Shown here: positions 30,886-51,008 of the stretch, piece after piece
Layout: each line of letters opens with the position of its first letter
Numbering within the stretch: position 1 is the stretch's first letter
Source of the DNA: Candidatus Saccharimonadales bacterium
GTDB taxonomy: Bacteria > Patescibacteriota > Saccharimonadia > Saccharimonadales > UBA4665
NCBI GenBank assembly: GCA_038237095.1
Contig: JBBRZB010000001.1
Location: 38,019 to 102,018 of the forward strand
Length of the DNA: 64,000 nt
Reading direction: 5' to 3'
Made by a program: the position numbers and the translations under genes
The notes under the pieces: generated by a model
What the model was told of the DNA's origin: nothing
Seen by the model: the letters and a program-made list of their open reading frames with translations, nothing else
Database searches by the model: none

Positions 30886-30934
30886 CATGCTTGAACTAGT
30901 AACGCATATACAGCGATGATACTGCTCATGCTTT

Positions 30935-30943
30935 TGCTATACT
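30935..30943 (+). promoter_or_regulatory. extended -10 element upstream of cassette 1
   Basis: TGcTATACT, with the ATG at 30954 only 10 nt downstream. Confidence 0.4.
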
Positions 30944-33631: not shown

Positions 33632-33671
33632 GCTTATCGAGGGTGTAGCTCTTTATATCTTGCACCGTTAA

Positions 33672-33687
33672 TGCTTTAATTAAAGCA
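33672..33687. promoter_or_regulatory. perfect 16-bp palindrome between the two cassettes
   Basis: TGCTTTAATTAAAGCA, 17 nt upstream of the cassette-2 ATG. Confidence 0.4.
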
Positions 33688-33703
33688 GAAGCGAATTACG
33701 TAT

Positions 33704-34282
33704 ATGAGCGGTGAAGAAAAAATAGCAAAAATTGCCGACAACGAGAGTGTAGTTGTGGCCGAAACGGGTTCTAAATCCAAGCCCTCTAAAAAGAAGGTTA
33801 TTGGACTAAGCTTAACGGTTCTAGTTTTATTGGTTCTAGGCGGCGCGGCCTATGCATTAGCTTCTTCTAAATCCAGCCCCAAGGTTAAAGTTACGATTGA
33901 TCCGCATAAGAGTGTTTCGGCTCAAGTAGCCAATCTAAGTAGTAGCGAAACCAAGTCACTTGCGCAAAGCAACGTAAATGCCAGTAAAGATCCAAATGCC
34001 GCCTATGCTAAGGCAGTCGCACAGAATCAAACCGGTGATTCCAAAGCAGCTGTCGTGACCTTTAAAGCCGTAACGGCAACGGGCGCTGTAAATTACATGG
34101 TCTATAACGACTATGCGCTGGCCGCGGCTTCAACCGGTGATTTAAAATTAGCAATTCAGAATATGCAGAAAGCAATCGATACACTTAATAATGACAAAAC
34201 GGTTTCCGCGGGTCTAAAGACTTCCGAAACGACTCGTATGCAAAACAAGCTTGATTGGTTTAAACTGGAGGCTCAATCGTGA
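33704..34282 (+). CDS. single-pass membrane protein, cassette 2 small subunit
   Basis: Lys-rich N-tail, one TM helix (VIGLSLTVLVLLVLGGAAYALA), then a helical Ala-rich ectodomain. The stop overlaps the next start (GTGA). Confidence 0.6.
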   Translation: MSGEEKIAKIADNESVVVAETGSKSKPSKKKVIGLSLTVLVLLVLGGAAYALASSKSSPKVKVTIDPHKSVSAQVANLSSSETKSLAQSNVNASKDPNAAYAKAVAQNQTGDSKAAVVTFKAVTATGAVNYMVYNDYALAAASTGDLKLAIQNMQKAIDTLNNDKTVSAGLKTSETTRMQNKLDWFKLEAQS

Positions 34283-36891
34283 GCCGCTCATTTAAACTGA
34301 GTGCTACACTCGCCATCTTTGCTGTGGTTACGGCAGCCGCGCTTGGGTTTATGGGTCACGCTAAGGCGTTCAATAACACCTACCCAGACACTGTCGGCGA
34401 CATATCAAGCGGCGCCAGTGTATATGCTGTAATCGGTCAAACACAATTCGTCCAGAGAACTGGTAGTAATTTACGCGTATGGTTCCCGACTAGTGCCGGC
34501 GGCACAATTACTATTGGGGACGGTAACTTCTGTTCAAGCAATGCCTATGATTATATCCAGAATGGTGACTACTTTGCGTCGCACGGCATTGGTAGCGGTA
34601 CTGCTGTTACTAATTTTGTCGTCAATGGTGTTACGAAGTATGGGTATTACTATGGGTCTGGCGACGCTCGCTGCAAGAGCAATATCACATTTGCAGTCAG
34701 CGGGCTGGGTGGAATCGAGAACGGTTATTATTACGCGGATATTACGATTTCGTATAGAGACCTAAGAGCTGGTGCATATGATGGTCTTATGAATTACTTT
34801 AGGATTGGCTCTTCGGTGGCAACCAGCTTTATTGGTGTACGCACCCCCCCAGGAGGAACATGGGGAACTGGATATGATTCTACGCAAGAGCAGGTGGATA
34901 CATCACCGACAAACTCAACGTATTACGAGCGATTTGGTTCACCGTGCAATCTTGCTGCAAATCAGACCGCACAACTCAAATTCTTTGACCTTGATAATGC
35001 CGGTGGTAGTGGTGCGCAGCTAAATGGTGATGTATCCGTAATTCTGTATGACAGAACAGGCGGTGCATCCATACCGGTAACACTATCTAGCCCAAGTGGC
35101 GGCTGGGGAGCCGGATCAACGCCCACACACTGGGTCCCAGTGAGCGTAAATAATGCCGCACAAACTATCAATTTCGTTGCCGCGCCGGGGCATAAATACT
35201 TGCTTGAAATACTCAATGTGTACTACAACAACACGATTCAATTCAGTTTACCGTATTCGCAGATTAACTATCTTAGCTGTAAGGGTGCCACGGTCACTCC
35301 AGGAGCCACAGTTGATAAGCCGGTTGTCGGCACAGGCACGACCGTAACATTCGTTAATACAGTTACTACTAGTGGTGCTGTCGGTACTGGCGCAGATAGT
35401 TTCGATTGGGCAACTGCCAGCAGCGGTGCGTCGCCACTCCCAGGTGCGCCTGCAGGAGCAGTCACAAGCGGCGCTAACTTATTACTGACTCCTGATCGGC
35501 TGGCGGCGTCGACATCATATAGTGTGGCCTTCGCAACGCCCGGCACGTATTGTAGAAGAATCACCGTGAGTGGTTATCCGGCATATGTAAAAACTCCCAT
35601 TGGAACATCGGCGCAAGCTTGTGTTACCGTATTGCCGGTTCCAACCTGTACCGGCGTTTCATCACCATCGACGGTACAGCCTGGTGATAAGACTGATGTT
35701 ACAGTTGGGTTTAGCGGCCCTGGGAGCGCTTCAATCACCAGCGTTACGTATACTGCGGCTGGGTTTATTCCAGGTAGTGGGAGTGCTTCGATTAACCCCC
35801 CAGCTGGGAGCGGCAAAGCAACGATCTTTGGCATTACCGTCCCGTCAACCGCGGGAACATATCCTATATCTTGGTCTCCCGTTCCAAACCCCACTGCGAT
35901 GCCGCCATGTAACGGTACCGTCAATGTCGTTGATCTACCAATCTTTAATGTCTATGGATCGGGTGTTCGTTCTGGTGGCGGTTTCCCAGCAAACGGCAGT
36001 GCCGGTAATGGGATATTGGCCAGTTGGTTTGATAACAGTGCAGGACATATGTATGGCTCAAGCACGGGTTTAAACGCTATTGCCATGGTTAATATCGTGG
36101 GCTTTGCCAGTAAACAAGCTGTATTCGGTGCTGGTAACCCAACCGGCCTGTCATTTGCTAACACGGCACTTATTAGCGGCTCATCACCAAGCGCGACACT
36201 AGGCGGTAATTTCGATACCGGTGGCTCATACAGCTTTGATGATCCAGGTCAGCCTGGAGGAGCGAGTGACCCAGGCGGGTCTATTTCGGCCACGACACTA
36301 TCGAGTATGAACGGTGTATTCAACCACAGTGGTGACCTGAATATTGCCGGCGGCACCATAAAGATTAAGCACAATGTGAGTATTTTCGTAAATGGGAACG
36401 TATATATAGGACCAACGGGAATCGGCTATGACACCGGCACAGTGTGGGGGACAAGCACAGACATACCCAGCTTTGTCGTAGTCGCGACTGGCAACATCTA
36501 CATTGATAATGATGCGGCACAAGTTGATGGTGTTTATATTGCGAAACCTAGTGGGGGCGGGGGAGGCCAGATCTACACTTGCGCCCAAGGCATGAACTCG
36601 TTCTTCAACAGTGGTGATATGTATAACCAATGCAACAATCAGCTGACAATTCACGGTGTATTTGTTGCCAATCGAGTCAATCTAATGCGTACCTTCGGAA
36701 CTCTTAAAGATGCCACTAGCCCAGCACCATCAAACTGTACTGATGGTGGGATTCCTAATGAGCGTAAGGTCTGTTCAGCTGAAGTCTTTGATTTTAGCCC
36801 CGAACTCTATTTGTCCAAGCCAAACATTAAATCTTCGAACACGGCGACAGTGCAGTACGACTCTATAGTTAGCTTGCCGCCTGTGTTGTGA
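34279..36891 (+). CDS. large secreted protein, cassette 2 (unique N-region + two Cys-delimited beta-sandwich-like modules + shared C-terminal domain)
   Basis: Signal-peptide-like N-terminus (..GFMGHAKA|FNN). 870 aa. The C-terminal 327 aa are paralogous to 32651-33628. Confidence 0.75.
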   Translation: MSRSFKLSATLAIFAVVTAAALGFMGHAKAFNNTYPDTVGDISSGASVYAVIGQTQFVQRTGSNLRVWFPTSAGGTITIGDGNFCSSNAYDYIQNGDYFASHGIGSGTAVTNFVVNGVTKYGYYYGSGDARCKSNITFAVSGLGGIENGYYYADITISYRDLRAGAYDGLMNYFRIGSSVATSFIGVRTPPGGTWGTGYDSTQEQVDTSPTNSTYYERFGSPCNLAANQTAQLKFFDLDNAGGSGAQLNGDVSVILYDRTGGASIPVTLSSPSGGWGAGSTPTHWVPVSVNNAAQTINFVAAPGHKYLLEILNVYYNNTIQFSLPYSQINYLSCKGATVTPGATVDKPVVGTGTTVTFVNTVTTSGAVGTGADSFDWATASSGASPLPGAPAGAVTSGANLLLTPDRLAASTSYSVAFATPGTYCRRITVSGYPAYVKTPIGTSAQACVTVLPVPTCTGVSSPSTVQPGDKTDVTVGFSGPGSASITSVTYTAAGFIPGSGSASINPPAGSGKATIFGITVPSTAGTYPISWSPVPNPTAMPPCNGTVNVVDLPIFNVYGSGVRSGGGFPANGSAGNGILASWFDNSAGHMYGSSTGLNAIAMVNIVGFASKQAVFGAGNPTGLSFANTALISGSSPSATLGGNFDTGGSYSFDDPGQPGGASDPGGSISATTLSSMNGVFNHSGDLNIAGGTIKIKHNVSIFVNGNVYIGPTGIGYDTGTVWGTSTDIPSFVVVATGNIYIDNDAAQVDGVYIAKPSGGGGGQIYTCAQGMNSFFNSGDMYNQCNNQLTIHGVFVANRVNLMRTFGTLKDATSPAPSNCTDGGIPNERKVCSAEVFDFSPELYLSKPNIKSSNTATVQYDSIVSLPPVL
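35908..36888 (+). repeat. paralogous C-terminal domain, copy 2
   Basis: See copy 1. Many of the DNA differences I compared fall at third codon positions. Confidence 0.9.
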
Positions 36892-37006
36892 TACAATTTA
36901 GGAAAGGAACATAACCGGAAATAAACATTATGGGTGGGCCCATCACAAACCAACCAGTACAACAGATACTAAGCGATAATGCTTATGCTATAATCGGGGT
37001 CAGAAT

Positions 37007-38050
37007 ATGAGCCTGTCATTTAGCGGTGTATCCGACTTCTTTGGCCTCGACATCGGCAGTACGGCAGTACGGTTAGTCCAACTGCGTGGTGCTGGGCTCC
37101 CAAAGGTGTTAGTTAAGTACGCGTATGTGCCACTTGATAGCAATATTTCACTCAGCGATTCAAAATCTGATCAGCAGAAATTAGCTCAAACTATCGCGCA
37201 ATTGGTGTCACAAGCGCATGTCACAACTCGAAACGTTGCCGTTGGTATTCCTTCAAGTCGTGTGTTTACCACTGTTGCGGATGTTGACCGGCTCCCAGGT
37301 AATGAGATGGCCAAAGCGATCCGTTATCAAGCTGATTCACTGATTCCTACGCCTTTAGCCGAATCTAAAATTGATTGGGCGATTTTGGGTGACGCGCCAA
37401 GCGACAAAACCAAGCAGAAAGTTCTACTCAGTAGTGTACCGAACGCCTTTGTTGAGTCGCGTCTTGATATGCTCGAATCAATCGGGTTGAATGTGGTGGC
37501 TTTTGAGCCAGACAACTTAGCTATGGCTCGTTCGCTCATCGCGCCAGACGCAGCCGAAGCTCAATTATTACTTGATGTCGGCCGAAAATCGACTGATTTA
37601 GTCGTGACATTAAACGGTGTACCACACTTAACACGCTCGATTCCAACTGGTGTTGAAGCAGTCGTTCGATCGGCGATGCAGAATCTTAACATCGATGAGA
37701 AACAGGCCGATCAATTTGTCTTCAAGTTCGGTTTGAGTAAGGACAAGCTTGAGGGCCAAGTCTACCAAGCGATTAGCACCACAATTGATCTTTTGACCAC
37801 AGAAATTGATAAGTCGATCAAGTTCTTCCAGACACGTTATACGACTGCTAAAATCGAACGCATGGTCGTTACGGGCGGGGCATCAGTTATACCTGAGTTC
37901 CCACTGTATTTGGCGAATAAATTCGGTGTAAACGTCGAAATTGGCAACGCATGGCGCAATGTGACATTTAGCCGCGACCGTCAGAACGAATTATTGGCGA
38001 TTTCAAACCAATTCGGCGTGGCCGTCGGCTTGGCGGAGCGGAGCGAATAA
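37007..38050 (+). CDS. pilM: type IV pilus assembly protein PilM
   Basis: Actin-like ATPase fold motifs (GLDIGSTAVRLVQL, VVTGGASVIPEF). Extended -10 TGcTATAAT at 36986-36994. Confidence 0.9.
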   Translation: MSLSFSGVSDFFGLDIGSTAVRLVQLRGAGLPKVLVKYAYVPLDSNISLSDSKSDQQKLAQTIAQLVSQAHVTTRNVAVGIPSSRVFTTVADVDRLPGNEMAKAIRYQADSLIPTPLAESKIDWAILGDAPSDKTKQKVLLSSVPNAFVESRLDMLESIGLNVVAFEPDNLAMARSLIAPDAAEAQLLLDVGRKSTDLVVTLNGVPHLTRSIPTGVEAVVRSAMQNLNIDEKQADQFVFKFGLSKDKLEGQVYQAISTTIDLLTTEIDKSIKFFQTRYTTAKIERMVVTGGASVIPEFPLYLANKFGVNVEIGNAWRNVTFSRDRQNELLAISNQFGVAVGLAERSE

Positions 38051-38745
38051 TGATTCAGTTTAATCTTTTACCGGATGTAAAACTCGATTACATCAAAGCC
38101 CAACGCACACGTCGTTTAGTGTTCAGCGCTAGTTTTATTGTCAGTGCTGCAGCTATTGCACTGTTAGTGCTTATGCTAAGCATCGATGGTCTTCAGAAGA
38201 AACATTTGCATGATTTGAGCGCTGATATAACTTCCGAAAGCCAGACATTACGGAAGAAGCCAAATATTAATACTATTTTAACCGTTCAAAATCAACTTGA
38301 GAGTCTAACAGCATTGCATGACACGAAGCCAGCCTCGGCACGCCTATTCACATATCTCAACCAGTTAACCCCCGCAAATGTGAGTGTGAGCAGTCTGAAC
38401 ATTGATTTTGCTCAGGATACGATAATCATCGGTGGAAACGCTGATGCGCTGAGCAGCGTCAACCAGTTTGTCGACACGCTTAAATTAACGACCTATACCG
38501 CTACGAGTAATGACGCTAACCATACTGTCACCAAAGGGAACGCTTTTAGCAGTGTGGTTTTGACTGGCTTTGGGCTTAATAACGCTTCAAAAGATAAGTC
38601 TCAAGCAGCGAATTACACCGTGACGCTCACCTACGATAAGGCAATTTTTGACATTACCAAGCAGGTTAGCTTGTCGGTTCCATCGATTACCACCCGTGCT
38701 CAACTACAATCCCCTGCGGATCTGTTTAAGGCTGGAGGGAATTAA
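38050..38745 (+). CDS. pilN: PilN-like pilus assembly protein
   Basis: Starts MIQFNLLPD followed by one TM helix, typical of PilN. The start overlaps the pilM stop (TAATG). Confidence 0.7.
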   Translation: MIQFNLLPDVKLDYIKAQRTRRLVFSASFIVSAAAIALLVLMLSIDGLQKKHLHDLSADITSESQTLRKKPNINTILTVQNQLESLTALHDTKPASARLFTYLNQLTPANVSVSSLNIDFAQDTIIIGGNADALSSVNQFVDTLKLTTYTATSNDANHTVTKGNAFSSVVLTGFGLNNASKDKSQAANYTVTLTYDKAIFDITKQVSLSVPSITTRAQLQSPADLFKAGGN

Positions 38746-38747
38746 CC

Positions 38748-39425
38748 ATGGCTAAGCTAGAGATTTCAACAAAGCGAGTCGCAATTAGCAAAGCCAATGC
38801 TCAAATGGTGGGTGTTGTGGCTGCCGCGTCGTTCGTAACAATTTTTTGTCTCGTAGCCAGCAGTGCAGTGTGGAGCCAAAACAAGTACCAAGCGCATCTT
38901 ACCAAAGCAAAAAGCATAGCTAACGCGCAATTGCTGAAGAATGTTGATGCATTTGATAGCTTATCTAAATCCTACGATTCGTTTGTCGCGCAATCACCCA
39001 ACGCTATTGGTGGTAATCCTGCTGGTACAGCTGACAATGACGGCACTAATGCAAAAATTGTCCTCGACGCGTTACCTAGTAGCTATGATTTCCCAGCTCT
39101 AACTGCAAGTGTTGAAAAAATTCTAACTGACCGTAGTTTTACTGTTAGTAGTATTACTGGTACTGATGATCAAGTTGCTCAAGGCAGTAATTCATCAAGC
39201 CCTACGCCACAAGCAGTACCAATCCCATTCTCATTCACCGTTACATCAACCAACTACAATGCCATCCAACAGCTCATTGCAACCTTACAATCATCAATTC
39301 GTCCAATACAGATTGATTCGCTCACCATGAGCGGTAATACCAATAACATGCAACTCACCGTCAACGCCCACACCTATTATCAGCCTGGGAAAAGCTTAAC
39401 AATTACGAAGCAGGTAGTTAAATGA
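38748..39425 (+). CDS. PilO-like pilus assembly protein (positional call)
   Basis: Single TM helix and a periplasmic-type domain. It occupies the position of pilO after pilN. Confidence 0.5.
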   Translation: MAKLEISTKRVAISKANAQMVGVVAAASFVTIFCLVASSAVWSQNKYQAHLTKAKSIANAQLLKNVDAFDSLSKSYDSFVAQSPNAIGGNPAGTADNDGTNAKIVLDALPSSYDFPALTASVEKILTDRSFTVSSITGTDDQVAQGSNSSSPTPQAVPIPFSFTVTSTNYNAIQQLIATLQSSIRPIQIDSLTMSGNTNNMQLTVNAHTYYQPGKSLTITKQVVK

Positions 39426-39673
39426 AACAAAAAGATTTCGCCCTTATCGCGGTTATCGTTTTCATAAGCGCAATTATTTCGCTGTTCGTAAGCAAAGCTA
39501 TCTTTGCACCACCAAAAAATCGCCAACAACAGGTTGAAGTTGTACAAGCAATTACGACTGATTTCCCAAAACCCGACACGAACTACTTTAACGCGACAGC
39601 CTTTGACCCCACCAAGCCGATTAATGTTGGCCAGAATGCTAACACAGATCCATTTAACGGATCTGGTAATTAA
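39422..39673 (+). CDS. small single-TM protein in the pilus operon
   Basis: 83 aa with TM helix FALIAVIVFISAIISLFV. ATGA overlap with the upstream gene. Confidence 0.5.
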   Translation: MKQKDFALIAVIVFISAIISLFVSKAIFAPPKNRQQQVEVVQAITTDFPKPDTNYFNATAFDPTKPINVGQNANTDPFNGSGN

Positions 39674-39742
39674 TCAGGCGGGCCTTCGTATGGGCACGCC
39701 AGTATCTACAATCTGCAGCCTGACTCAGGCAAGGAGCCAATT

Positions 39743-41548
39743 ATGAGTCTATTGGCCACAGGATCTGGTCAGCAAATCGAGGATGTGCTCGTTAAAACGG
39801 GCGCTATTACTGCTGATAAACTTCACGCCGCACATGAAGAGGCAAAGAAACATGGCGATCCACTGATTAGCTATTTATTAAAGAATAAACTTATTAACGA
39901 TGAGCAACTCACAAAAGCCAATGCGACAATCACTAAAGTTCCGTACGTAAACCTGCTCTCAGCTCGAGTCGATCCGGATATCCTGGCATTATTACCGAAA
40001 GAAATTGCCGAGCGCTACATGGCAGTACCTCTTGGAGAGATGCAGCACCGCTTGGTTGTAGCTATGCTTGACGCAGGAAACGTGCAGGCAGTAGATTTCC
40101 TGAGCAACAAGATTGGACGTGCGCTCAAAGTGTATGTTGCGAGCGAAACTGGTATCAAACAAGTCTTAAAGCAATACCAAGGTAAACTCGACACCCAAAT
40201 GAACGAGGCGCTCCAGATTAATATGGATGAGCCAGAGGGCGAAGCGGATATCAAGAACAAAAAGAAAGACGACAAAAAAGACGATGATATTAAGGCTCTT
40301 GTTGAAGATTCGCCAATTAGTAAGGCCTTAACGGCTATCTTAGAATACGCGGCTCATAACCGTGCGAGTGATGTTCACATCGAACCAATGGAAAAAGAGC
40401 TTAAGGTGCGTTGCCGTATTGATGGTGTACTCCGTGAAATCATGCGCCTGCCGAAGAACACCGAACCAGCGCTCATTTCACGCATTAAAATTTTGTCCAA
40501 TCTAAAAATTGACGAACACCGAATGCCGCAAGATGGCCAGTTTACGGTCGCTGTTGATAACCGTAAGATTGACTTACGTATCGCCATTGCACCGATTGTG
40601 TGGGGTGAGCAAGTTGTGATTCGATTGCTGGATAAAACAGGTACCTCCATGAAACTCGAGGATATGGGCTATGCCGGTAGGGCACTACGTACGATTCGAA
40701 AAGGTTTGGAGCGACCGAACGGTATGATTCTTACGAGTGGGCCAACTGGGTCTGGCAAGTCCACCTCACTCTATGCGTTGATTCAGGAAATCATGAATGA
40801 CTCGATTAATATCGTCACGCTGGAAGACCCAGTCGAGTACAAGATGGACGGCATTAATCAGATTCAAGTCAACGCCGAGGTGGGGCTGACATTTGCCTCA
40901 GGTTTGCGCAGTATTTTGCGTCAAGACCCTGACGTAGTGATGGTAGGAGAGATTCGCGATAAAGAGACCGCTCAGCTGGCCGTTCAGGCTGCTTTAACTG
41001 GTCACTTGGTGTTTAGCACGCTACACACCAATAGCGCGGCCGGTATTCTGCCACGTTTGCTAGATATGGGTATTGAGCCGTTCTTGATTGCCAGTACAGT
41101 GCATACCGTTATTGGCCAGCGATTAGTTCGGAAAATTGCAGACACAGGCAAAGAGACCTACCAATCGACTGAAGTCGAAACGGCTGCCATCCAGTCAACC
41201 TTGGCAAAACTTTTGCCAGCTGCAGACGAGCAAGTTGAGGCTGCCAGTAAAGACCTTGGGTATAAAAGCTTGCCCTTAGTAAACCAAACCGCTTATACTT
41301 TAAGTAAGGGCACTGATAGCCCAGATACGCCAGGTGGCTACAAGGGTCGAATTGGTTTGTATGAGGTTTTTGAAATCTCAGATAATATCCAATCGCTGAT
41401 CATGAAGCAGGCCACCAGTAGCGAAATCGAAAAAGCTGCGCAGGCAGAAGGCATGGTTACCATGCGTCAAGACGGTTATTTAAAAGCCTTAGATGGTCGT
41501 ACTACGCTTGCAGAGATTAACCGCGTAGCGGCAGAGGACAATGCATAA
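39743..41548 (+). CDS. pilB: type IV pilus extension ATPase PilB (GspE family)
   Basis: T2SSE N-terminal domain. Walker A SGPTGSGKSTS, Asp box, Walker B VVMVGEIRD and His box STLHTNSA. Confidence 0.95.
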   Translation: MSLLATGSGQQIEDVLVKTGAITADKLHAAHEEAKKHGDPLISYLLKNKLINDEQLTKANATITKVPYVNLLSARVDPDILALLPKEIAERYMAVPLGEMQHRLVVAMLDAGNVQAVDFLSNKIGRALKVYVASETGIKQVLKQYQGKLDTQMNEALQINMDEPEGEADIKNKKKDDKKDDDIKALVEDSPISKALTAILEYAAHNRASDVHIEPMEKELKVRCRIDGVLREIMRLPKNTEPALISRIKILSNLKIDEHRMPQDGQFTVAVDNRKIDLRIAIAPIVWGEQVVIRLLDKTGTSMKLEDMGYAGRALRTIRKGLERPNGMILTSGPTGSGKSTSLYALIQEIMNDSINIVTLEDPVEYKMDGINQIQVNAEVGLTFASGLRSILRQDPDVVMVGEIRDKETAQLAVQAALTGHLVFSTLHTNSAAGILPRLLDMGIEPFLIASTVHTVIGQRLVRKIADTGKETYQSTEVETAAIQSTLAKLLPAADEQVEAASKDLGYKSLPLVNQTAYTLSKGTDSPDTPGGYKGRIGLYEVFEISDNIQSLIMKQATSSEIEKAAQAEGMVTMRQDGYLKALDGRTTLAEINRVAAEDNA

Positions 41549-41643
41549 AATGAACAAATTGTTAAAAGTTAGTAATAACAAACGTACGAGGTATACGTCT
41601 GTTGCTATGAGCTTTGAACGTGCAAATAATAAAGGGGTGGGAT

Positions 41644-42711
41644 ATGCAGGCACAACCAAGAATTGAAGTCTTACTAGACGAAGTTATCAAGAAAAAGGCT
41701 TCTGACTTACACATTCAGGTTGGTTTGCCACCGATGTTACGTGTCGATGGTTCACTAGTGCCCGTTACTGGCGCTGATATTCTCGATGAAGAGGCTATTG
41801 AGGCGCTTATTTTTGCCATTCTGGATGAAGACCAGAAGCAGATTTTACTAAAAGACAAGGAATTCGACTTTAGTTTTGCGTATGGTGATCTTGGTCGTTT
41901 CCGTGTGAACGCGTTCCATGAACGGGGTAACATGGCAGCTGCCTTGCGTCTAATTCCAAACGAAATTTTAACGATTGAACAGCTTGGTTTACCACAGATT
42001 GTAAACAAGTTCGCAGATTTCCCCCGTGGCCTAGTCTTGGTAACCGGCCCAACTGGATCTGGTAAGTCGACGACGTTGGCGGCCTTGGTCCATAAAATTA
42101 ACGTTGAAAAAGCGGTGCACATCGTAACTATCGAAGACCCGATTGAGTTTACCCACAAGTCGCAAAAATCAGTCATCGTACAGCGTGAGGTACACTATGA
42201 TACGTACTCGTTTAGCGCTGCGCTTCGTAGCGCATTGCGCGAAGACCCAGATGTCGTCCTCGTCGGAGAAATGCGTGACCTCGAAACGATTGCTAGCGCT
42301 ATTACCATCGCTGAAACCGGTCACTTAGTATTTGCCACGCTGCACACAAATAACGCCTCCCAGAGTATCGATCGTATGATTGACGTCTTCCCGCCACACC
42401 AACAACCGCAGATTCGCGCGCAGCTCGCTAATATCTTAATGTCTATCACATCACAGCGTCTGGTGCCTGCAATTGGTGGTGGCCGTATCGCCGCCGCTGA
42501 AATTTTGGTGGCTACACCAGCTGTTCGCAATATTATCCGCGAAGGCAAAAGCCATCAGCTAGAAGCCGTTATTCAGACTGGTGCAGAATTCGGTATGCAA
42601 TCCATGGACAAGACGCTTGCTGGTTTGATTCACGAAGGTCGCATCACGTACGAAGAAGCACGTAATGTTGCCGTCGACCTAGACGAACTAGACAGGTTAA
42701 TGAGAGGCTAA
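41644..42711 (+). CDS. pilT: twitching-motility retraction ATPase PilT
   Basis: Motifs ASDLHIQVG, Walker A TGPTGSGKSTT, VVLVGEMRD, ATLHTNNA and AIRNIIREGK. The ATG at 41644 follows aaaggggtgg. Confidence 0.95.
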   Translation: MQAQPRIEVLLDEVIKKKASDLHIQVGLPPMLRVDGSLVPVTGADILDEEAIEALIFAILDEDQKQILLKDKEFDFSFAYGDLGRFRVNAFHERGNMAAALRLIPNEILTIEQLGLPQIVNKFADFPRGLVLVTGPTGSGKSTTLAALVHKINVEKAVHIVTIEDPIEFTHKSQKSVIVQREVHYDTYSFSAALRSALREDPDVVLVGEMRDLETIASAITIAETGHLVFATLHTNNASQSIDRMIDVFPPHQQPQIRAQLANILMSITSQRLVPAIGGGRIAAAEILVATPAVRNIIREGKSHQLEAVIQTGAEFGMQSMDKTLAGLIHEGRITYEEARNVAVDLDELDRLMRG

Positions 42712-42712
42712 T

Positions 42713-43933
42713 ATGCTGAATTTTAAGTACGAAGCTCGCAATGCAACCACCGGCCAAAAGGTTAATTCACAGGTCCAAGCTGATAATGAGCAGAGTGCGA
42801 CTAAGCTGATTCGTGACCAGGGTTTAACTCCCATATCAATTGTTGCTGAAAGTAGTACCGGCAGCCGTCGATTTAGGCGAGTCAAAACTAAAGACAAGGT
42901 CTTATTTAGTCGCCAGTTATCGACACTGATTAATGCCGGCTTACCGCTCGTACAATCCTTACGTAGCGTTGGTGAACAGACTACCAACAAGGCTTTCAAA
43001 GTTATTATTAATCAGATTATATCCGATGTGGAGGCTGGAACATCTTTCAGCGCGGCATTAGACAAGTACCCACAAGTTTTTAATCGCGTATTCGTGAGTT
43101 TGGTAGCGGCTGGTGAAGCTTCAGGTACGTTAGACAGGGGACTGGAGCGTCTGGCCGATCAACAAGAAAAGGACGCCGAGATCATTTCAAAAGTCCGTGG
43201 CGCTATGATTTACCCATTTATCGTCTTGTTGGTCATGATGGCGGTGATGGGCTTTATGGTGGTGAAGGTTCTGCCTCAGGTGCAGAACATTTACGCCGGC
43301 ATTCAGGGAGCCACATTACCATTGGTTACGCGTATTCTACTAGCAATCTCAACCTTCATCATCCATTTTTGGTGGTTGGTATTGATCGTTTTGGGCCTAG
43401 GGATCTTCTTTGGGTCACGTTGGGCTCGAACGCTCGGTGGACGTAGTATCGTCGATAAAATTAAGATGAAAACTTGGCCAGTTGGTGGCTTGTTCATGAA
43501 GATGTACATGGCACGGTTTGCTCGTACCGGTACTACGCTCGTAGCTAGTGGGGTTCCGCTTATCCAAGTGTTAGAGATTACTTCTGACGCGGTAGATAAC
43601 GTGCACATTGGCGCATCATTGCAGCGGGCTATTGAGAAAGTTAAAGGTGGTAAATCACTCTCAGACGCCATTACAAACGATCCTAATTTCCTTGAGTTAG
43701 TACCGAATATGCTCCGGATTGGTGAACAGTCTGGCGCGCTTGAAACCATGCTCAGCAAAGTGGCTGATTACTATGAGAAAGAAGTAGACAACGAAGTTAA
43801 GAACATTAATACAATTATTGAACCTGTTTTGATGGTAGTCATGGGCGTCATGGCGTTAACTATCGTTGCCGCTATTCTATTGCCGATTTACGGATTGGTT
43901 AATCAATCGGGCTTCACCAGTGCAGGCGGCTAG
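42713..43933 (+). CDS. pilC: type IV pilus platform protein PilC (GspF family)
   Basis: Duplicated T2SSF domains (FSRQLSTLINAGLPLVQSL and FARTGTTLVASGVPLIQVL) and three TM segments. Confidence 0.95.
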   Translation: MLNFKYEARNATTGQKVNSQVQADNEQSATKLIRDQGLTPISIVAESSTGSRRFRRVKTKDKVLFSRQLSTLINAGLPLVQSLRSVGEQTTNKAFKVIINQIISDVEAGTSFSAALDKYPQVFNRVFVSLVAAGEASGTLDRGLERLADQQEKDAEIISKVRGAMIYPFIVLLVMMAVMGFMVVKVLPQVQNIYAGIQGATLPLVTRILLAISTFIIHFWWLVLIVLGLGIFFGSRWARTLGGRSIVDKIKMKTWPVGGLFMKMYMARFARTGTTLVASGVPLIQVLEITSDAVDNVHIGASLQRAIEKVKGGKSLSDAITNDPNFLELVPNMLRIGEQSGALETMLSKVADYYEKEVDNEVKNINTIIEPVLMVVMGVMALTIVAAILLPIYGLVNQSGFTSAGG

Positions 43934-44405
43934 TAAACCACGGAACGCAGTAGATGGTTTTACCATCGTCGAGATGTTGATTGTGCTGGCGATTGGAGGG
44001 CTGATTGCATTAATTGTATTCGCCGCGATTCCAGCTTTAACGCGTAACTCGCGCAATAACCAGCGGCGTCAGGACGTGTCGACAATACTACAAGCGGTCT
44101 CACATTACGAACTTAATAAATCTGGCAATTTCCCAGTTGATAGTGATCTCGCCTCGTTGTCACTCGGAAGCTCACTGACCTATTACAGCGCTGGACCAAG
44201 CCCCGATATACAATTTTTTGCGAACCAACCCGGGACCGTTTCAAACCTGAACGACGTAAACAAAGTCAGGGTCTATCAGTACCAAATCTGCAGTACCACA
44301 ACCACTGGCAACTCGAGTAGCTCGGGGGCTGGTTCACTAGATATCGTCGCGCTATTTGCGATTGAAACGGCCGGCGGCTCTTCACCACAGTGCGAACAGT
44401 TGTGA
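43920..44405 (+). CDS. prepilin-type protein (class III signal peptide)
   Basis: GTG start. Leader ..NAVDG|FTIVEMLIVLAIGGLIALIV with Glu at +5. Confidence 0.72.
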   Translation: MQAASKPRNAVDGFTIVEMLIVLAIGGLIALIVFAAIPALTRNSRNNQRRQDVSTILQAVSHYELNKSGNFPVDSDLASLSLGSSLTYYSAGPSPDIQFFANQPGTVSNLNDVNKVRVYQYQICSTTTTGNSSSSGAGSLDIVALFAIETAGGSSPQCEQL

Positions 44406-44496
44406 CCCCTGTGTAAAACTGCTTGCTTTTTTGCGGTCACCAGCATATCATCTAACCATAAGCATCAAACATTAATCTGCAAAGGGGGCATTTGCA

Positions 44497-44967
44497 ATGC
44501 TTAAGCAATTAAAGAAATCTAATGAGGGCTTCACCATCATCGAAGTGATGATTGTGCTTGCAATCGCCGGGCTGATCCTATTGATCGTCTTCTTGGCGGT
44601 TCCAGCCTTACAGCGTAACGCTCGAAATACGACACTTAAGAATGATGCATCAGCAATTGCTGGAGGTATTACTGAGTACGTATCTAACAACAACGGCGCA
44701 CAGCCAACAGCATTTGTTCCGGCTGCTCCTGTCTCACCATCGATTACGATTGGTGCTGCAGGTTCGGCACAGGTAATAGCAAAAGTTAACGGTAGTACGA
44801 CTGTTACCACAGTCGCTGCTGTACCAACCGCTGCTAATGTCGGTACTGGTACGATTAAAGTCTATTGGGGCCATGACTGCTCAGGCGTAGCTAACGCTCG
44901 TCAATCAGCGGTCTTCTACGGTATCGAAGCCGCGGGTGGACAAGTAGTAACTTGTATCGCTAGCTAG
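44497..44967 (+). CDS. pilA: major type IV pilin candidate
   Basis: MLKQLKKSNEG|FTIIEVMIVLAIAGLILLIV. Strong SD aaaggggg. Followed by a strong terminator. C-terminal Cys pair. Confidence 0.85.
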   Translation: MLKQLKKSNEGFTIIEVMIVLAIAGLILLIVFLAVPALQRNARNTTLKNDASAIAGGITEYVSNNNGAQPTAFVPAAPVSPSITIGAAGSAQVIAKVNGSTTVTTVAAVPTAANVGTGTIKVYWGHDCSGVANARQSAVFYGIEAAGGQVVTCIAS

Positions 44968-44990
44968 CAATACTTAGAACGCTATAAAAA

Positions 44991-45024
44991 TTAAGAAACG
45001 GCCACAAAAGTGGCCGTTTCTTAA
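44991..45024 (+). terminator. intrinsic terminator after pilA
   Basis: TTAAGAAACGGCCAC-aaaa-GTGGCCGTTTCTTAA, a perfect 15-bp stem. Confidence 0.8.
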
Positions 45025-45076
45025 TGGTACCGCAAGGATTTAATGTCATCAGCGCTCATGTGGTACCATTGAGCTA

Positions 45077-45916
45077 ATGATTATCGTCGTTTTGCTAGTG
45101 TTAGGGCTGTGTTTTGGTAGTTTCGTAAACGCGTTGGTGTGGCGGGTTCACGAGCAAGATACAGAGCACGGAAAGAAGAATCCGAATAAAAAGTATCTCA
45201 AGCAGCTGTCGATAAGCCGCGGTCGTTCAATGTGTTCGCAGTGCCATCACGAACTAGAAGCAAAAGACTTACTTCCGGTCGTTAGTTGGGTGAGCTTAAA
45301 AGGGAAGTGTCGCTACTGTGGTAAGCCGATACCAGATAGCCCTTTAGTAGAACTTGCAACAGCTGGACTTTTTATAGCTTCCTATATCTGGTGGCCGTAC
45401 ACGCTAACGGGACTCAATACGTTGCAGTTTGGCCTGTGGCTGGCTTTATTGGTGGGATTTATGGCCCTGACGGTCTACGATCTGCGTTGGTACTTGTTAC
45501 CTAACCGGTTGATGTACCCGGTGGGAGCTATTGCAGCTGTTTTCGGGCTGATTAGCGTGCATCAAGCGTTTCATCCTTTGACAGCGCTTCTGAGCCTTGT
45601 TTTAGCAGTTGTAATAGGCGGCGGCATATTCTACGTACTATTTCAGATATCAGGTGGTAAGTGGATTGGTGGGGGTGACGTTAAACTGGGCTGGCAACTC
45701 GGGTTGGTTGTTCTAGCGCCAGTGAGGAGCCTACTGTTTATTTTTGTAGCCGCATTGGCCGGTAGTTTGGTTTCTATACCTCTGTTGATGCGGGGTAAGC
45801 TTCAACGCTCGGCAATTATCCCATTTGGCCCATTCTTGATTCTTGGCGCAATCGTCGTCGTGTTGTTTGGCTCAGACATTCTGAGCTGGTATCAGCACTT
45901 GATTATTGTTGGGTGA
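45077..45916 (+). CDS. pilD: prepilin peptidase (A24 family) PilD
   Basis: N-terminal Cys motifs CSQCHHEL...CRYCGKPI. Multi-TM. Motifs GGGDVKLG and IPFGPFL. Confidence 0.9.
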   Translation: MIIVVLLVLGLCFGSFVNALVWRVHEQDTEHGKKNPNKKYLKQLSISRGRSMCSQCHHELEAKDLLPVVSWVSLKGKCRYCGKPIPDSPLVELATAGLFIASYIWWPYTLTGLNTLQFGLWLALLVGFMALTVYDLRWYLLPNRLMYPVGAIAAVFGLISVHQAFHPLTALLSLVLAVVIGGGIFYVLFQISGGKWIGGGDVKLGWQLGLVVLAPVRSLLFIFVAALAGSLVSIPLLMRGKLQRSAIIPFGPFLILGAIVVVLFGSDILSWYQHLIIVG

Positions 45917-45961
45917 TTATCTCTGTTGTTACGAAGTGCTTATGCTATACTTGGAAGTAAC

Positions 45962-46750
45962 ATGAACGGTGGTAAAAAACGTCCCTCCGGCTACACAATT
46001 ATTGAAGTTATGATTGTTCTAGCTGTGTCTGGCTTGATGTTCGCGATTGCCGCTAACTTTATCTCAGGCAAACAAGCCAGAACGTCATTTACGGTCAGTA
46101 CGCACGAGATGAATTCTCGGGTACAGTCAATCATAGATCAGGTTCAGAATGGGCAATTTAGCGATGTGTCATTTGGATGTACCATTCAAGCCGGTAAATT
46201 GAGTATCGACTCGGGTGCGGGTGTTGGGCAAGGGCAGCATCCGAACTGTGTGTTCTTTGGGAAATTCCTGCATGTATCACTCGGCGGTTCATCCGATACT
46301 AAAAAGTATGAAGTTTTTACAATTGGCGGCTCGAACGGGGCAGTTAATTACACGTCGGCCACCCCGATCACTCCCTATACCGCCGGTGCTAGTCCGTTAG
46401 AGCTAACTACGTTCAGTAGCACGCCTCAAGGTGTTGACGTGACCAATGTTAAAGTTACGGTCGGCGTTGTCACACAGACGACATGGGGGATCGGATTCTT
46501 GCAAGATATAACTGCATCGGGTACCGGCACTGGTCGTGTTGTTCTAGCATATGTCCCAGCACCAACGTTTACCAATAAAGAGGCTGAGTCAACGGCAGCC
46601 ACTGCAATCGAGACCAATCTTTTGATTGCAGATTCTGCCGAAATTTGTATGACTGACGGAACGAGGTACGCGGTAATTCAACTGGGCACTAATGGGGCAA
46701 ACCAAACGACCGCTAATCTTAAAGTGTTAGCCACGGGGACAACATGCTAA
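45962..46750 (+). CDS. minor pilin-like protein
   Basis: MNGGKKRPSG|YTIIEVMIVLAVSGLMF, a class III signal peptide. Confidence 0.72.
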   Translation: MNGGKKRPSGYTIIEVMIVLAVSGLMFAIAANFISGKQARTSFTVSTHEMNSRVQSIIDQVQNGQFSDVSFGCTIQAGKLSIDSGAGVGQGQHPNCVFFGKFLHVSLGGSSDTKKYEVFTIGGSNGAVNYTSATPITPYTAGASPLELTTFSSTPQGVDVTNVKVTVGVVTQTTWGIGFLQDITASGTGTGRVVLAYVPAPTFTNKEAESTAATAIETNLLIADSAEICMTDGTRYAVIQLGTNGANQTTANLKVLATGTTC

Positions 46751-47181
46751 AGCTTATTAAAAATAATGCAGGCGACACAATTGTAGAAGTGATGGTCGTT
46801 TTGGCTGTCTTAGGCTTAGCAATTGGTATTTCATACGCTACCGCCAGTCGAAGCCTGACAAACACGCGCAGCTCACAAGAAAACTCTAGCGCTACGGAGT
46901 TATTAAAGTCACAAGTTGAGGTACTCCGTTACTGGGCTGCAGATTTAAATTACGGGGCTTTACCGCCCTCGTTTTGTGTTAATCCTGCGGCTTCGTCGGT
47001 GGGGAGTGTAGTTGTTACAGGTGCGTCATGCAAGAATCTGGACACCTACTATACGGTTGATATTTCTTATCAAGATACAGGCACAAATCCCAATACCTTT
47101 ACCCTCATCGCTACTTGGCAGGATCTACAGCAAAAGGGTTATAAAGACTCGGCAACGCTAGTGTATAGGGTGCATCAATAA
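46744..47181 (+). CDS. minor pilin-like protein with atypical +1 residue
   Basis: MLKLIKNNAG|DTIVEVMVVLAVLGL. Glu at +5 is present, but +1 is Asp. Confidence 0.65.
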   Translation: MLKLIKNNAGDTIVEVMVVLAVLGLAIGISYATASRSLTNTRSSQENSSATELLKSQVEVLRYWAADLNYGALPPSFCVNPAASSVGSVVVTGASCKNLDTYYTVDISYQDTGTNPNTFTLIATWQDLQQKGYKDSATLVYRVHQ

Positions 47182-47834
47182 TGAAGCGACAAGACGGTTT
47201 TACTATCATTGAGCTCATGATCGCAACTTCTATCTTATCGATAATTTTGCTCATGGTCACTGTAGTTATAACTAATATTGGCAACCTGTACTACAAGGGC
47301 ATTAACCAATCAGCTATTCAGAACGATGCGCGTACGATTGTTGGACAGATCTCGGAAGACATCCAATTTTCTGGTAACACGCCCGTAACCTGTATACAAG
47401 CACCATTACCAGGGGCCAACTGTCCGGCCAGTCTGGCGGGTCAAAAAGTTTATGTTACCTGTATTGGCAGCGTACGCTACACCTATGTCCAGAAGGTAAA
47501 ACTTGGAACAAAGATAGGTGCCACCACCTTCAACCATGTTATATGGCGAGATACGCCTAATTCTTGCGATCCTACTACTGGCGCAAACCTTTCTGCGCTA
47601 AATCCGAGCATTGCGGCCTACAAAGGAGCTGAACTTATTTCATCTAACTCGCGTCTGACTAATCTACTCGTCGGTTCAAACCAGCCAACGAGTCTAATAA
47701 TTGGTATCGCGTACGGCGACGACGATTTGCTTAACCTATCCGCTAGCCCCGTAACCTGCAATGGTGGCGCAGGTGATAAATTTTGTGCTACAGCAAATCT
47801 ACAAACAGTAGTCATGCAACGAGTTTCGAACTAG
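47181..47834 (+). CDS. minor pilin-like protein
   Basis: MKRQDG|FTIIELMIATSILSIILL. Confidence 0.72.
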   Translation: MKRQDGFTIIELMIATSILSIILLMVTVVITNIGNLYYKGINQSAIQNDARTIVGQISEDIQFSGNTPVTCIQAPLPGANCPASLAGQKVYVTCIGSVRYTYVQKVKLGTKIGATTFNHVIWRDTPNSCDPTTGANLSALNPSIAAYKGAELISSNSRLTNLLVGSNQPTSLIIGIAYGDDDLLNLSASPVTCNGGAGDKFCATANLQTVVMQRVSN

Positions 47835-47842
47835 GTTACAAT

Positions 47843-49309
47843 ATGCATATGCTTCAAATCAATAAAAATCCAGTAGTGGGCAAGTTAGCAGGCAACCAAC
47901 AGGGTTTCGCCTCAATGGTAATCGGCCTTGTGCTAATCCTTGTTCTGGCGCTTATGACTGTTGGTTTCGCCCAGCTGGCTCGACATGAACAACAGCAGGC
48001 ACTGAGCCACCAACTGTCAACTGCAGCGTACTATGCCGCCGAGTCAGGCATAAATGATGCAGTTAAATCAATCCAGAATGGCATAACTAACCCAGCTGGT
48101 CCAAGCGTTATCACCGAAGCTACTACGGGCGTAGATAGTAATACCTGCCTAACAGGAGGTGGACTGGGTCTCAATTCTGCGCTTGGATCTAGCGCTGGCG
48201 TAGATTTCACCTATAGCTGCGTCATGGTTTCATTTAAGAACGATAATTTGCTCTACAACCCAGCTGCTACGGACAGTGGCCACTCAACATTGACGCATAC
48301 CAACGGGCAGATTAAAAAGCTAACAATTACTTGGAGCAGCAAAGACGGCAAAACTACACCGCGTGGTGATGGTAAGTTTGCTGCCAAATCAGTCTGGACC
48401 TCACCAGCAGTGATTCAATTCAGTATTACACCGATTTCAGCTTATAATCGCCAAAGCCTCATCAATAACACCTACACAGCTTTCCTTTATCCTGGTAACG
48501 GTCCAGGTACATCAGCTTCGGGTAGTTATGGTTCAAATGGGCAATTAGTACAGGCATCAACTTGTAACACAACATGCACATCGACAATTGATATGACAGG
48601 CTCACCAATTCCAGCAGCTGATGCCAATGGTAGCCCGTACCTTGTTCACATAATTGATTTGTACGACGACTCCAAGGCTATCACTATATCCGGTACAGAC
48701 AATGCGGGTAAAGCCTTAACGTTTACTGGTCAGCCATCAGTAGATGTTACTGGTAAGGCCAAAAACGTGCTCAAGCGATTAAGGGTTCGTGTTTCACTCG
48801 ACAGTAACAGCGCATTTAATTACGCGCTTGTAGCTCAAGATATTTGTAAACGAATCGTAACACAGCCCAACATCACGACGTTTGACATTATACCTGGTGC
48901 TCCGTCAGGTGCATGTGACCCTGTACCGATCAACAATACTCCATCTCCTATTAGCCCCAATGGACTAGCTCAAATTGCACCTTGTATGGTTAATTGTTCA
49001 GGGAGTGCCCCTCCTCCTGGTGGTGCCTACCATTGGCAACACACGTTCACGAATGCTTCGCCAGCTGGGCAGGATGCCATAACGACTGGCTGTACTTGGA
49101 CATTTACGGGGAAGCCTAATATAACCACGGCGTGTCTCAGTGGCCAACCTACGCCACCCATCGACTTTAGCAGCCTGGAACCACCTGGGTTCCCGCCGTA
49201 TCCTGATGGCTGTCACTCAATATCAATAACTGCCACTTTGACTGAACACCTGAGTAACGGCACAAACCCCGTTAACACGAAAAAAACGAACGTACCTAGT
49301 TGCTACTAG
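47843..49309 (+). CDS. PilX-N-like large pilus-associated protein
   Basis: The N-terminus ..NQQGFASMVIGLVLILVLALMTVGF (no Glu at +5) resembles the PilX N-terminal domain. 488 aa with a Cys- and Pro-rich C-terminus. Confidence 0.55.
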   Translation: MHMLQINKNPVVGKLAGNQQGFASMVIGLVLILVLALMTVGFAQLARHEQQQALSHQLSTAAYYAAESGINDAVKSIQNGITNPAGPSVITEATTGVDSNTCLTGGGLGLNSALGSSAGVDFTYSCVMVSFKNDNLLYNPAATDSGHSTLTHTNGQIKKLTITWSSKDGKTTPRGDGKFAAKSVWTSPAVIQFSITPISAYNRQSLINNTYTAFLYPGNGPGTSASGSYGSNGQLVQASTCNTTCTSTIDMTGSPIPAADANGSPYLVHIIDLYDDSKAITISGTDNAGKALTFTGQPSVDVTGKAKNVLKRLRVRVSLDSNSAFNYALVAQDICKRIVTQPNITTFDIIPGAPSGACDPVPINNTPSPISPNGLAQIAPCMVNCSGSAPPPGGAYHWQHTFTNASPAGQDAITTGCTWTFTGKPNITTACLSGQPTPPIDFSSLEPPGFPPYPDGCHSISITATLTEHLSNGTNPVNTKKTNVPSCY

Positions 49310-49323
49310 AGTCGCTTGCTTTT

Positions 49324-50247
49324 CTAGTCTGAGGCTGTCTGCTTGTGGTGAAACTTCTCGTGTACGGCCCGTAAATGTGGGTCAGTAACGTGCGTATAAA
49401 TTTGTGTGGTAGCGATGTTACTGTGTCCGAGCATAGCTTGAACGCTACGAATATCAGCGCCATTCATCAGTAAATCGGTCGCAAATGAGTGGCGCAGCGT
49501 ATGTGGGCTGACATGTTTGGTGATACCGGCGAGCAGGGCGTAGCGGGCCACGATGCGTTGCACGCTCCTCGGTGTTAATCGATGGAAGTTACCGCTTAGA
49601 TCAACTTTCTTAGTCCCGCTATAACGGACAAAAAGTGGTTTCGCCGTGTCCTGACGTTTGCTCAAATAGTGTTCAATCCATGTGGCGGCATCTTGGCTAA
49701 TAAAAATTGGGCGATCTTTTTGGCCTTTGCCGCGCACCATAAACTCACGGCGCTTTAAATTAATGTGATCACGGTCTAGCCCCGTTAGTTCACTGACACG
49801 TAAGCCGGAGCTGAACAATAATTCTAATATTGCACGGTCACGCACACCCGCAACTGTTTCGAGATCGGGCTGCTCAAAAATGCGGGCTAACTCCTCGGGC
49901 GTCAAGAAGGTTACTTGTTTGCGCTGGGTGCGCGCCAGTTCGACTTTATCAGCCGAAATCGCTGGGATATCACGTTTAGCACAATATTTGAGGAAGCTGC
50001 GGAGCGCGATTAGATGATAATTCTGTGTCGTTTTACCGAGTTCATCAGAGGTGTTCGTGCCGAGACGGTTCAACCAGAGGCGCCATTTACGTATTAATTC
50101 GGCGTCGATGTCTTTGACTTGTATTTCACCCGCGAAGTCGACTAATCGGGTGAGGTAATGGTCATAATTCTCAATAGTTTTCTGCGAACGGTTCTGTTCG
50201 ATTTCGAGATACTCTAAAAAATCAGTTTTTACTTTTGCAAATAGCAT
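49324..50247 (-). CDS. tyrosine recombinase XerC/XerD family
   Basis: Motifs GLRVSEL and HTLRHSFATDLLMNGADIRSVQAMLGHSNIATTQIYTHV (R-H-R-Y catalytic motifs). Confidence 0.9.
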   Translation of the reverse strand: MLFAKVKTDFLEYLEIEQNRSQKTIENYDHYLTRLVDFAGEIQVKDIDAELIRKWRLWLNRLGTNTSDELGKTTQNYHLIALRSFLKYCAKRDIPAISADKVELARTQRKQVTFLTPEELARIFEQPDLETVAGVRDRAILELLFSSGLRVSELTGLDRDHINLKRREFMVRGKGQKDRPIFISQDAATWIEHYLSKRQDTAKPLFVRYSGTKKVDLSGNFHRLTPRSVQRIVARYALLAGITKHVSPHTLRHSFATDLLMNGADIRSVQAMLGHSNIATTQIYTHVTDPHLRAVHEKFHHKQTASD

Positions 50248-50933: not shown

Positions 50934-51008
50934 GTCCCTGTAGTTCAATGGATAAAATAACTCCGTCCTAAGGAGAAGCTGGAGGTTCGAATCCTCCCGG
51001 GGGCACCA
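50934..51008 (+). tRNA. tRNA-Arg(CCU)
   Basis: Manual fold. Acceptor GTCCCTG/CGGGGGC (two G-U pairs). Anticodon loop gTCCTAa. T-arm GGAGG-TTCGAAT-CCTCC. CCA encoded. 4-nt variable loop. Confidence 0.8.

Follow-up and report, generated by a model that had tools for sequence, protein, structure and literature searches.

A probable orthologue of the Saccharibacterial type IV pilus locus T4P-1 in a sediment genome of Candidatus Saccharimonadales

A stretch of 64,000 nucleotides from the genome of a Candidatus Saccharimonadales bacterium (assembly GCA_038237095.1, contig JBBRZB010000001.1, positions 38,019 to 102,018), hereafter called the window, was analyzed for a type IV pilus (T4P) locus. A first-pass annotation, made from the sequence letters, had reported this locus on one strand and in the order PilM to PilX. 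The source genome comprises 0.92 Mb (923 kb) in 41 contigs and is 97% complete. It is an uncultivated metagenome-assembled genome (MAG) from sediment, and the only public run that holds the window sequence is a sediment DNA metagenome. Judged by its sequence relatives, the organism is a Saccharibacterium of an environmental (sediment) lineage with a GC content of 47–48%. The best 80 PilT relatives in a collection of species-representative genomes showed 84–91% identity and were nearly all labelled as Saccharibacteria or Saccharimonadales MAGs. Protein families were searched with Pfam and NCBIfam, AlphaFold2 models were compared with the PDB using Foldseek, and paralogues within the genome were searched by tblastn. 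The locus was compared with 80 close loci and with 20 loci from across the class. The class-wide sample comprised 201 genomes spread evenly over Saccharimonadia, many of them single-contig.

The open reading frame (ORF) list and the family searches recovered every pilus gene that had been listed, in the stated order, in a co-directional array of 12.3 kb on the + strand (37007–49309). The features of this array are as follows (positions are those of the window; aa, amino acids; arrows mark the cleavage site of prepilin leaders).

37007–38050, + strand: PilM, cytoplasmic actin-like assembly protein, 347 aa; PF11104 1.1e-39; TIGR01175 159 bits (cut-off 133)
38050–38745, + strand: PilN, bitopic, 231 aa; PF05137 exactly at the cut-off
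38748–39425, + strand: PilO, bitopic, 225 aa, ferredoxin-like C-terminal domain
39422–39673, + strand: bitopic protein, 83 aa, family unknown; MKQKD, transmembrane (TM) helix, outside tail ...YFN..DPTQ.I.IG.N.N..PF
39743–41548, + strand: PilB extension ATPase, 601 aa; PF00437 9e-124; N-terminal MshEN domain PF05157
41644–42711, + strand: PilT retraction ATPase, 355 aa from ATG 41644; TIGR01420 478.5 bits (cut-off 319.1)
42713–43933, + strand: PilC platform protein, 406 aa; PF00482 6e-64, two repeats; GspF/PilC matches in NCBIfam
43920–44405, + strand: extra pilin paralogue, 161 aa from GTG 43920 (ORF open from 43866); PF07963
44497–44967, + strand: major pilin candidate (PilA1 orthologue), 156 aa; PF07963; ...SNEG↓FTIIEVM
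44990–45025, + strand: hairpin 3' of the 156-aa pilin gene; perfect 16-bp stem, GC-rich core followed by TTTCTTAAT
45077–45916, + strand: PilD prepilin peptidase/N-methyltransferase, 279 aa; PF06750 4.6e-24 and PF01478 6e-10
45962–46750, + strand: minor pilin 1, 262 aa from ATG 45962 (ORF of 274 aa, mp274); PF07963; ...RPSG↓YTIIEVM
46744–47181, + strand: minor pilin 2 (mp145), 145 aa; PF07963 20.2 bits, just below the cut-off of 21.2; ...NNAG↓DTIVEVM
47181–47834, + strand: minor pilin 3 (mp217), 217 aa; PF07963 5e-8; MKRQDG↓FTIIELM
47843–49309, + strand: PilX-like large minor pilin, 488 aa from ATG 47843; PF14341 24.4 bits, just below the cut-off of 25.5

Many of the genes overlap at their junctions, as had been noted before and can be read directly from the sequence: TAATG joins pilM to pilN and mp145 to mp217, ATGA joins pilO to the gene of the 83-aa protein, and mp274 and mp145 share 7 nt.

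The assembly proteins PilN and PilO required searches beyond single-sequence family matches. For PilN, a profile built from 46 orthologues gave PilN of Myxococcus xanthus (3jc8_N) as its best match with an E value of 0.0011. The 225-aa ORF had no Pfam match, and the Pfam PilO model found nothing genome-wide even at E ≤ 10. Structure prediction was needed to confirm PilO. The AlphaFold2 model of the ORF (predicted local distance difference test score, pLDDT, 86.5) returned PilO of M. xanthus or Pseudomonas aeruginosa as the top three Foldseek matches (E 2.6e-5 to 7e-4), among them 3jc8_O from M. xanthus (E 2.6e-5) and 2rjz from P. aeruginosa (E 2e-4). In addition, a PilO profile matched PilO among the PDB sequences with an E value of 0.015. 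The predicted structure thus confirms a PilO fold for this ORF.

The catalytic motifs of the motor and processing enzymes are in place. PilB contains a Walker A motif at position 333 and an Asp box at position 395; CxxC pairs were not found in it. A cyclic di-GMP (c-di-GMP)-binding MshEN motif in PilB (39743–39950) was considered and is unsupported, as NF053729 scored 25 bits, short of its cut-off of 38. By eye, the conserved Arg and Gly of the first MshEN motif seem to be missing in PilB. The start of PilT was corrected to ATG 41644 with the Shine-Dalgarno (SD) sequence GGGGTGGG. The protein has the Walker A and Asp boxes, and its AIRNLIRE-type motif reads AVRNIIRE. PilT is the only gene of the PilT/PilU family in the genome. 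Elsewhere tblastn detected PilB paralogues only and PilU was not found genome-wide, which extends to the whole genome what had been said about PilU in the window. PilD, which is also present in a single copy, shows GxGDxK at 198 and two CxxC pairs, located at 53 and 78.

Five of the encoded proteins are N_methyl prepilins with class III leaders of the form G↓(F/Y/D)T(I)(I/V)E, with Gly at position −1 and Glu at position +5. These leaders are detectable even as a repeat family in the DNA. The first pilin gene overlaps the end of pilC with its start and encodes the leader MQAASKPRNAVDG↓FTIVEM (...AVDG↓FTIVEM). Its product is 33% identical to the following 156-aa pilin. A second pilin after pilC was found in only 8 of 65 relatives, namely the closest ones. 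Orthology links the 156-aa pilin to the universal single pilin of the relatives, and its N-terminus is near-identical in all 70 of them. It has a GAST content of 41.7%, and its gene is preceded by its own sigma70-like promoter-like site and the strong SD sequence AAAGGGGG. The strong terminator that the first-pass annotation attributed to this major pilin candidate exists as the hairpin listed above. Judged from its sequence it is likely to act as a partial terminator ahead of pilD.

Among the pilins downstream of pilD, orthologues of minor pilin 1 have Tyr or Phe at position +1 and Glu at position +5. Minor pilin 2, which also shows a weak match to ComP_DUS, carries Asp in place of Phe, Tyr or Met at position +1 after the PilD cleavage site, and this residue is kept in 57 of 59 orthologues. 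The last gene encodes the 488-aa protein described before as PilX-N-like, whose size was confirmed with the start at ATG 47843. Its signal reads G↓FASMV and is missing the Glu at position +5. In the AlphaFold2 model of this protein (pLDDT 70), a long helix at the N-terminus is followed by a beta-sandwich predicted with confidence (residues 122–316) and by a poorly modelled C-terminal extension rich in Cys and Pro. Foldseek against the PDB gave no match at E ≤ 1e-3; the weak top matches were lectin and adhesin domains. A similarity to carbohydrate-binding proteins has been reported for PilX1 of TM7x, and the weak matches observed here agree loosely with it. Orthologues vary in length from 313 to 853 aa. 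On the basis of the model, the PilX-like protein may be regarded as a candidate tip adhesin.

A pilus locus of this type has already been described and genetically characterized in cultivated Saccharibacteria. In Southlakia epibionticum the T4P1 locus comprises 13 genes, SEML1_0104-0116, all of which were scored essential (Wang 2023 Table S1, PMC10633639). SEML1_0104 is PilM, and SEML1_0105 and SEML1_0106 are hypothetical proteins, the latter with a PilO fold. SEML1_0113-0116 encode a GspH-family protein, an exported protein, a prepilin-type hypothetical protein and a TadG-like-N protein with a galactose-binding-like domain. Downstream of SEML1_0116 follow a convergent tyrosine recombinase, ndk and a tRNA-Arg (SEML1_0117-0119; PMC10633639). 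In Nanosynbacter lyticus TM7x, locus one (TM7x_00415-00475) contains PilC1, PilB1, PilT, PilM1, PilN1, PilO1, PilD and 5 pilins (Grossman 2024, PMC11623550). Its pilus is an essential, thick (~3.2 nm), retractile surface filament that is implicated in twitching (PMC11623550).

In the synteny comparison within Saccharibacteria that the first-pass annotation had called for, the pilus gene order of the window was colinear with all 80 close loci and with the 20 class-wide loci. An apparent non-colinearity among the close loci arose because both pilins of the window match the single pilin of most relatives. The downstream boundary of the locus is formed by the following features.

49324–50247, − strand: XerC-like tyrosine recombinase, convergent with the PilX gene, the only one in the genome
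50302–50877: ndk, downstream of xerC
50934–51005: tRNA, downstream of ndk

This recombinase flank is kept next to the pilus locus across the class and in S. epibionticum. A shufflon, or site-specific inversion of pilin genes by the adjacent recombinase, was considered and rejected. The enzyme is the only tyrosine recombinase of the genome and no meaningful inverted repeats were found around the pilin genes; therefore, it is a housekeeping Xer enzyme.

The genome contains a second locus of the T4P-2 type on another contig (C3:35955-48911) with pilB2, pilC2, a pilin, pilM2, pilN2, pilO2 and recA/recX. PilT and PilD are encoded in the window locus only. The second locus also holds three divergent large pilin-like genes and the gene of a 101-aa bitopic protein ending in NPFQ. 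Separately, an orphan ATPase of the PilB/GspE family (C11:22289-23896, 535 aa, PF00437 2e-86) was observed among housekeeping neighbours with no pilus genes nearby.

Taken together, we regard the window locus, with a probability of roughly 0.9, as orthologous to T4P-1 of Saccharibacteria, which is a retractile type IVa pilus machine of the monoderm type. Several points weigh against this assignment. The best NCBIfam match of PilB is type IV-A PilB, yet it stays below the equivalog cut-off. The adhesin role of PilX is backed by structural hints that are not significant. Orthology to the TM7x and S. epibionticum loci was derived from gene order, sizes, annotations and class-wide synteny, not from direct alignment. 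Moreover, the only public run with the sequence is a DNA metagenome, and with 41 contigs and 97% completeness a missing gene is not formally excludable from the assembly alone.

The 83-aa bitopic protein is the sole mildly novel lead of the locus. Its gene was found at 70 of about 71 close loci. In 52 of 71 it overlaps the pilO stop codon by 4 nt, and the two genes are translationally coupled. With a mean column identity of 57% the protein is better conserved than PilN and PilO. It is present as a single copy in 116 of the 201 class genomes and nearly absent in a sample of 235 other Patescibacteria. A profile search against PDB sequences, a Pfam scan of 46 members and NCBIfam gave no credible match. 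The gene occupies the place of pilP in pilMNOPQ clusters, and a similarity to PilP is undetectable. By position and size the protein would be the counterpart of SEML1_0107 of S. epibionticum, a 228-bp hypothetical gene scored essential by transposon sequencing (Tn-seq; Wang 2023, PMC10633639). The genes named in the main text of the TM7x paper do not include it (PMC11623550). Homology to the 101-aa bitopic protein encoded after pilO2 could not be demonstrated, as hhalign aligned only the TM helix with a probability of 2%; the pair can be called analogues by position. A single genome from another order (G014:C2:33200-53100) has pilC directly after the small bitopic gene, with pilB and pilT absent from the place they normally hold. 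Tentatively, the 83-aa protein could be a fourth, membrane-anchored and Saccharimonadia-specific subunit of the PilMNO sub-complex which, in a cell that has no secretin, stabilizes PilN-PilO or tethers the machine to the cell wall, but we hold this for a guess with rather less than even odds.

Upstream of pilM the window contains two cassettes of a small membrane protein and a large secreted protein each. These and the promoter-like motifs of the region are listed below.

30929–30943, + strand: promoter-like 15-mer ahead of the first cassette
30954–36891, + strand: two tandem cassettes, encoding proteins of 175 and 717 aa and of 192 and 870 aa
36980–36994, + strand: extended −10 motif resembling a promoter, TGCTTATGCTATAAT, 12 nt ahead of the ATG of pilM
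45937–45951, + strand: second copy of the motif, TGCTTATGCTATACT, 10 nt before ATG 45962 of minor pilin 1

The 15-mer TGCTT[AT]TGCTATA[AC]T occurs in exactly five copies in the 923-kb genome, each of them 6–12 nt before an ATG. Three copies lie in the cassette and pilus block, while the other two, at C20:7024 (+) and C5:19886 (−), precede other envelope genes. The genes behind these two copies encode a small membrane protein and a PDZ/S41-type protease. Since the motif lies only 12 nt before the pilM ATG, the leader of this transcript would be very short or absent, and the spacing of all five copies implies leaderless or near-leaderless mRNAs, as far as the sequence can predict them. In 36 relatives the motif stands at −16 to −21 of pilM, and in about 20 others it lies at about −100 to −200; about 48 relatives have it ahead of the orthologue of minor pilin 1. 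When up to 2 mismatches were tolerated, 119 copies were counted on the coding strand of the 80 loci and 8 on the other strand, clustering just ahead of pilM and of the first minor pilin gene downstream. We read this distribution as pointing to separate transcription units of the cassettes, pilM and the minor pilins under a similar type of promoter. For the pilus genes three units may be proposed: pilM to the pilin, read-through into pilD, and then the minor pilins.

How closely the cassettes belong to the pilus genes has to be weighed against this background. The first-pass annotation had counted both as about 18.4 kb of co-directional surface-structure genes, and the block from 30954 to 49309 indeed measures 18.36 kb. 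The two large cassette proteins of the window share a C-terminal stretch of about 400 aa at 60% identity. Of 58 close relatives with sufficient flanking sequence, 54 have a gene of this family that ends 44–226 nt upstream of pilM, and 14 of 20 class-wide loci have one just upstream of pilM. The contiguity is hence real and mostly conserved. On these grounds, cassettes and pilus genes could form one functional unit, co-transcribed and co-inherited from the cassettes through pilM to pilX, with the large secreted proteins PilY1-like in role. Besides the common orientation and the conserved neighbourhood, this idea finds support in the 115-nt gap before pilM, and read-through from the cassette into pilM is possible because no convincing terminator lies between them. 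The same promoter-like 15-mer also stands ahead of the cassette, pilM and the minor pilins; a weaker extension of the idea would be that it co-regulates all three as one surface-structure programme. However, pilM carries its own conserved promoter-like motif, and 4 of 58 close and 6 of 20 distant loci have no cassette at this place. In S. epibionticum the cassette is absent there and YchF is encoded on the opposite strand upstream of pilM (PMC10633639). T4P1 of this organism is essential and so must function with no cassette next to it. The motif defines no pilus regulon, given that unrelated envelope genes have it in front of them as well. Consequently, from YchF in S. epibionticum and the own motif of pilM, the linkage of cassettes and pilus is frequent but not obligatory, and a single functional unit appears to us doubtful, if still worth considering.

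The machine could also serve primarily as a DNA-uptake (competence) pilus or as a type II secretion pseudopilus rather than as a surface pilus for motility and adhesion. Saccharibacteria are naturally competent and without nucleotide synthesis (Wang 2023, PMC10633639), PilB and PilC also score well against the GspE and GspF models, and the ComP_DUS match of minor pilin 2, weak as it is, points in the same direction. Nevertheless, the locus possesses a dedicated PilT with the AIRNLIRE-type motif together with PilMNO, and in this genome it is the second locus, that of contig C3, which is linked to recA. The comEC mutants of S. epibionticum are viable, whereas its T4P genes are essential (PMC10633639), so the essential role is not competence. 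The locus-one pilus of TM7x, finally, is a visible surface filament linked to twitching (PMC11623550). A primary function in DNA uptake or secretion is thus quite improbable.

No PilQ secretin had been seen in the window, and the search of the whole genome with PF00263 was likewise blank. Above the Pfam cut-off, secretins were found in 0 of the 201 class genomes, while 6 diderm controls were positive. Omp85/BamA (PF01103) had no match in the genome either; 7 controls scored above the cut-off. The absence of PilP holds in so far as the genome contained no credible match, PF04351 reaching no better than E = 0.18, and that on contig C34, outside the locus, but the control genomes were also blank, which makes this a weak test. 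As a rule, PilQ and PilP are missing from monoderm type IVa pili (T4aP) (Pelicic 2019, PMC6916266). Secretin-associated proteins such as TsaP or PilF/PilW would be irrelevant where no secretin exists. Bacteria of the Candidate Phyla Radiation (CPR) have been reported to be without GspD-type secretins and, by prediction, Gram-positive. As the secretin is missing class-wide, its absence is, on the evidence of these genomes, a lineage trait of a monoderm rather than a peculiarity of this locus. Of the two explanations offered by the first-pass annotation, an envelope without an outer membrane fits all tests, and a non-canonical exit route is needless. That a secretin or another outer-membrane conduit was missed, through the incomplete assembly (97% in 41 contigs) or through divergence beyond the limited reach of PF00263 and other hidden Markov model (HMM) searches, has a negligible chance, given the blank result in all 201 class genomes including many single-contig ones, the scoring diderm controls, the lack of an Omp85/BamA to insert such a protein and the generally secretin-free T4P of monoderms (PMC6916266).

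For the preferred assignment as T4P-1, the following mode of action may be envisaged. While gene identities, catalytic motifs, the secretin and Omp85 absences and the synteny with published loci are observed here, an essential, thick (~3.2 nm) and twitching-linked pilus would be expected by analogy, from the literature on cultivated relatives. PilD would cleave the class III leaders of the six pilin-like proteins. PilB, acting via the PilC platform and the PilM-PilN-PilO sub-complex, to which the 83-aa protein probably belongs, would then polymerize the 156-aa major pilin. Priming of assembly and formation of the tip probably fall to the four minor pilins encoded downstream, of which the largest, the PilX-like protein with its beta-sandwich, is the likely host-binding module. 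PilT would depolymerize the fibre and thereby cause retraction and twitching. The fibre would exit directly through the cell wall; with no outer membrane in this lineage, a secretin, PilP or another outer-membrane factor would be superfluous.

For Saccharibacteria, which are minute single-membrane cells living on other bacteria, type IV pili play a central part in locating the bacterial host, binding to it and moving on it. The present locus adds an environmental example and shows class-wide conservation of the T4P-1 architecture and its flanks. The absence of a secretin is expected for a monoderm lineage, is covered in the literature and needs no special explanation. Details that may be useful for work with cultivable strains are the 83-aa protein, the minor pilin with Asp at position +1, the extra pilin of a subclade, the promoter-like motif predicting separate transcription units and the frequent, non-obligatory linkage of the cassettes.

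Compared with the diderm pilMNOPQ systems of P. aeruginosa and M. xanthus, the locus has homologous PilM, PilN and PilO, the enzymes and platform PilB, PilT, PilC and PilD and a minor pilin of the PilX_N type. In contrast to these systems, no PilQ, PilP or PilU was found here, and a small bitopic protein stands in the PilP position. The monoderm T4aP of Streptococcus sanguinis and Clostridium (PMC6916266) share with it PilB, PilT, PilC and PilD, PilMNO, a major and several minor pilins and the lack of PilQ, PilP and outer-membrane accessory proteins. The locus described here differs from them by the conserved 83-aa bitopic protein after pilO and by one major pilin with a paralogue. The closest resemblance is to T4P-1 of TM7x and S. 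epibionticum, with which it has in common PilM, PilN, PilO, a small hypothetical protein, PilB, PilT, PilC, a pilin, PilD, minor pilins and a large PilX, the downstream recombinase, ndk and tRNA-Arg, the genome's sole PilT and PilD and a separate recA/recX locus. Differences from T4P-1 are the extra pilin paralogue after pilC and, with respect to S. epibionticum, a PilX of 488 instead of 384 aa with a Cys/Pro-rich extension and two upstream cassettes in the place of YchF. Finally, in contrast to T4P-1 of the cultivated Saccharibacteria, the locus comes from an environmental sediment lineage with a GC content of 47–48%.

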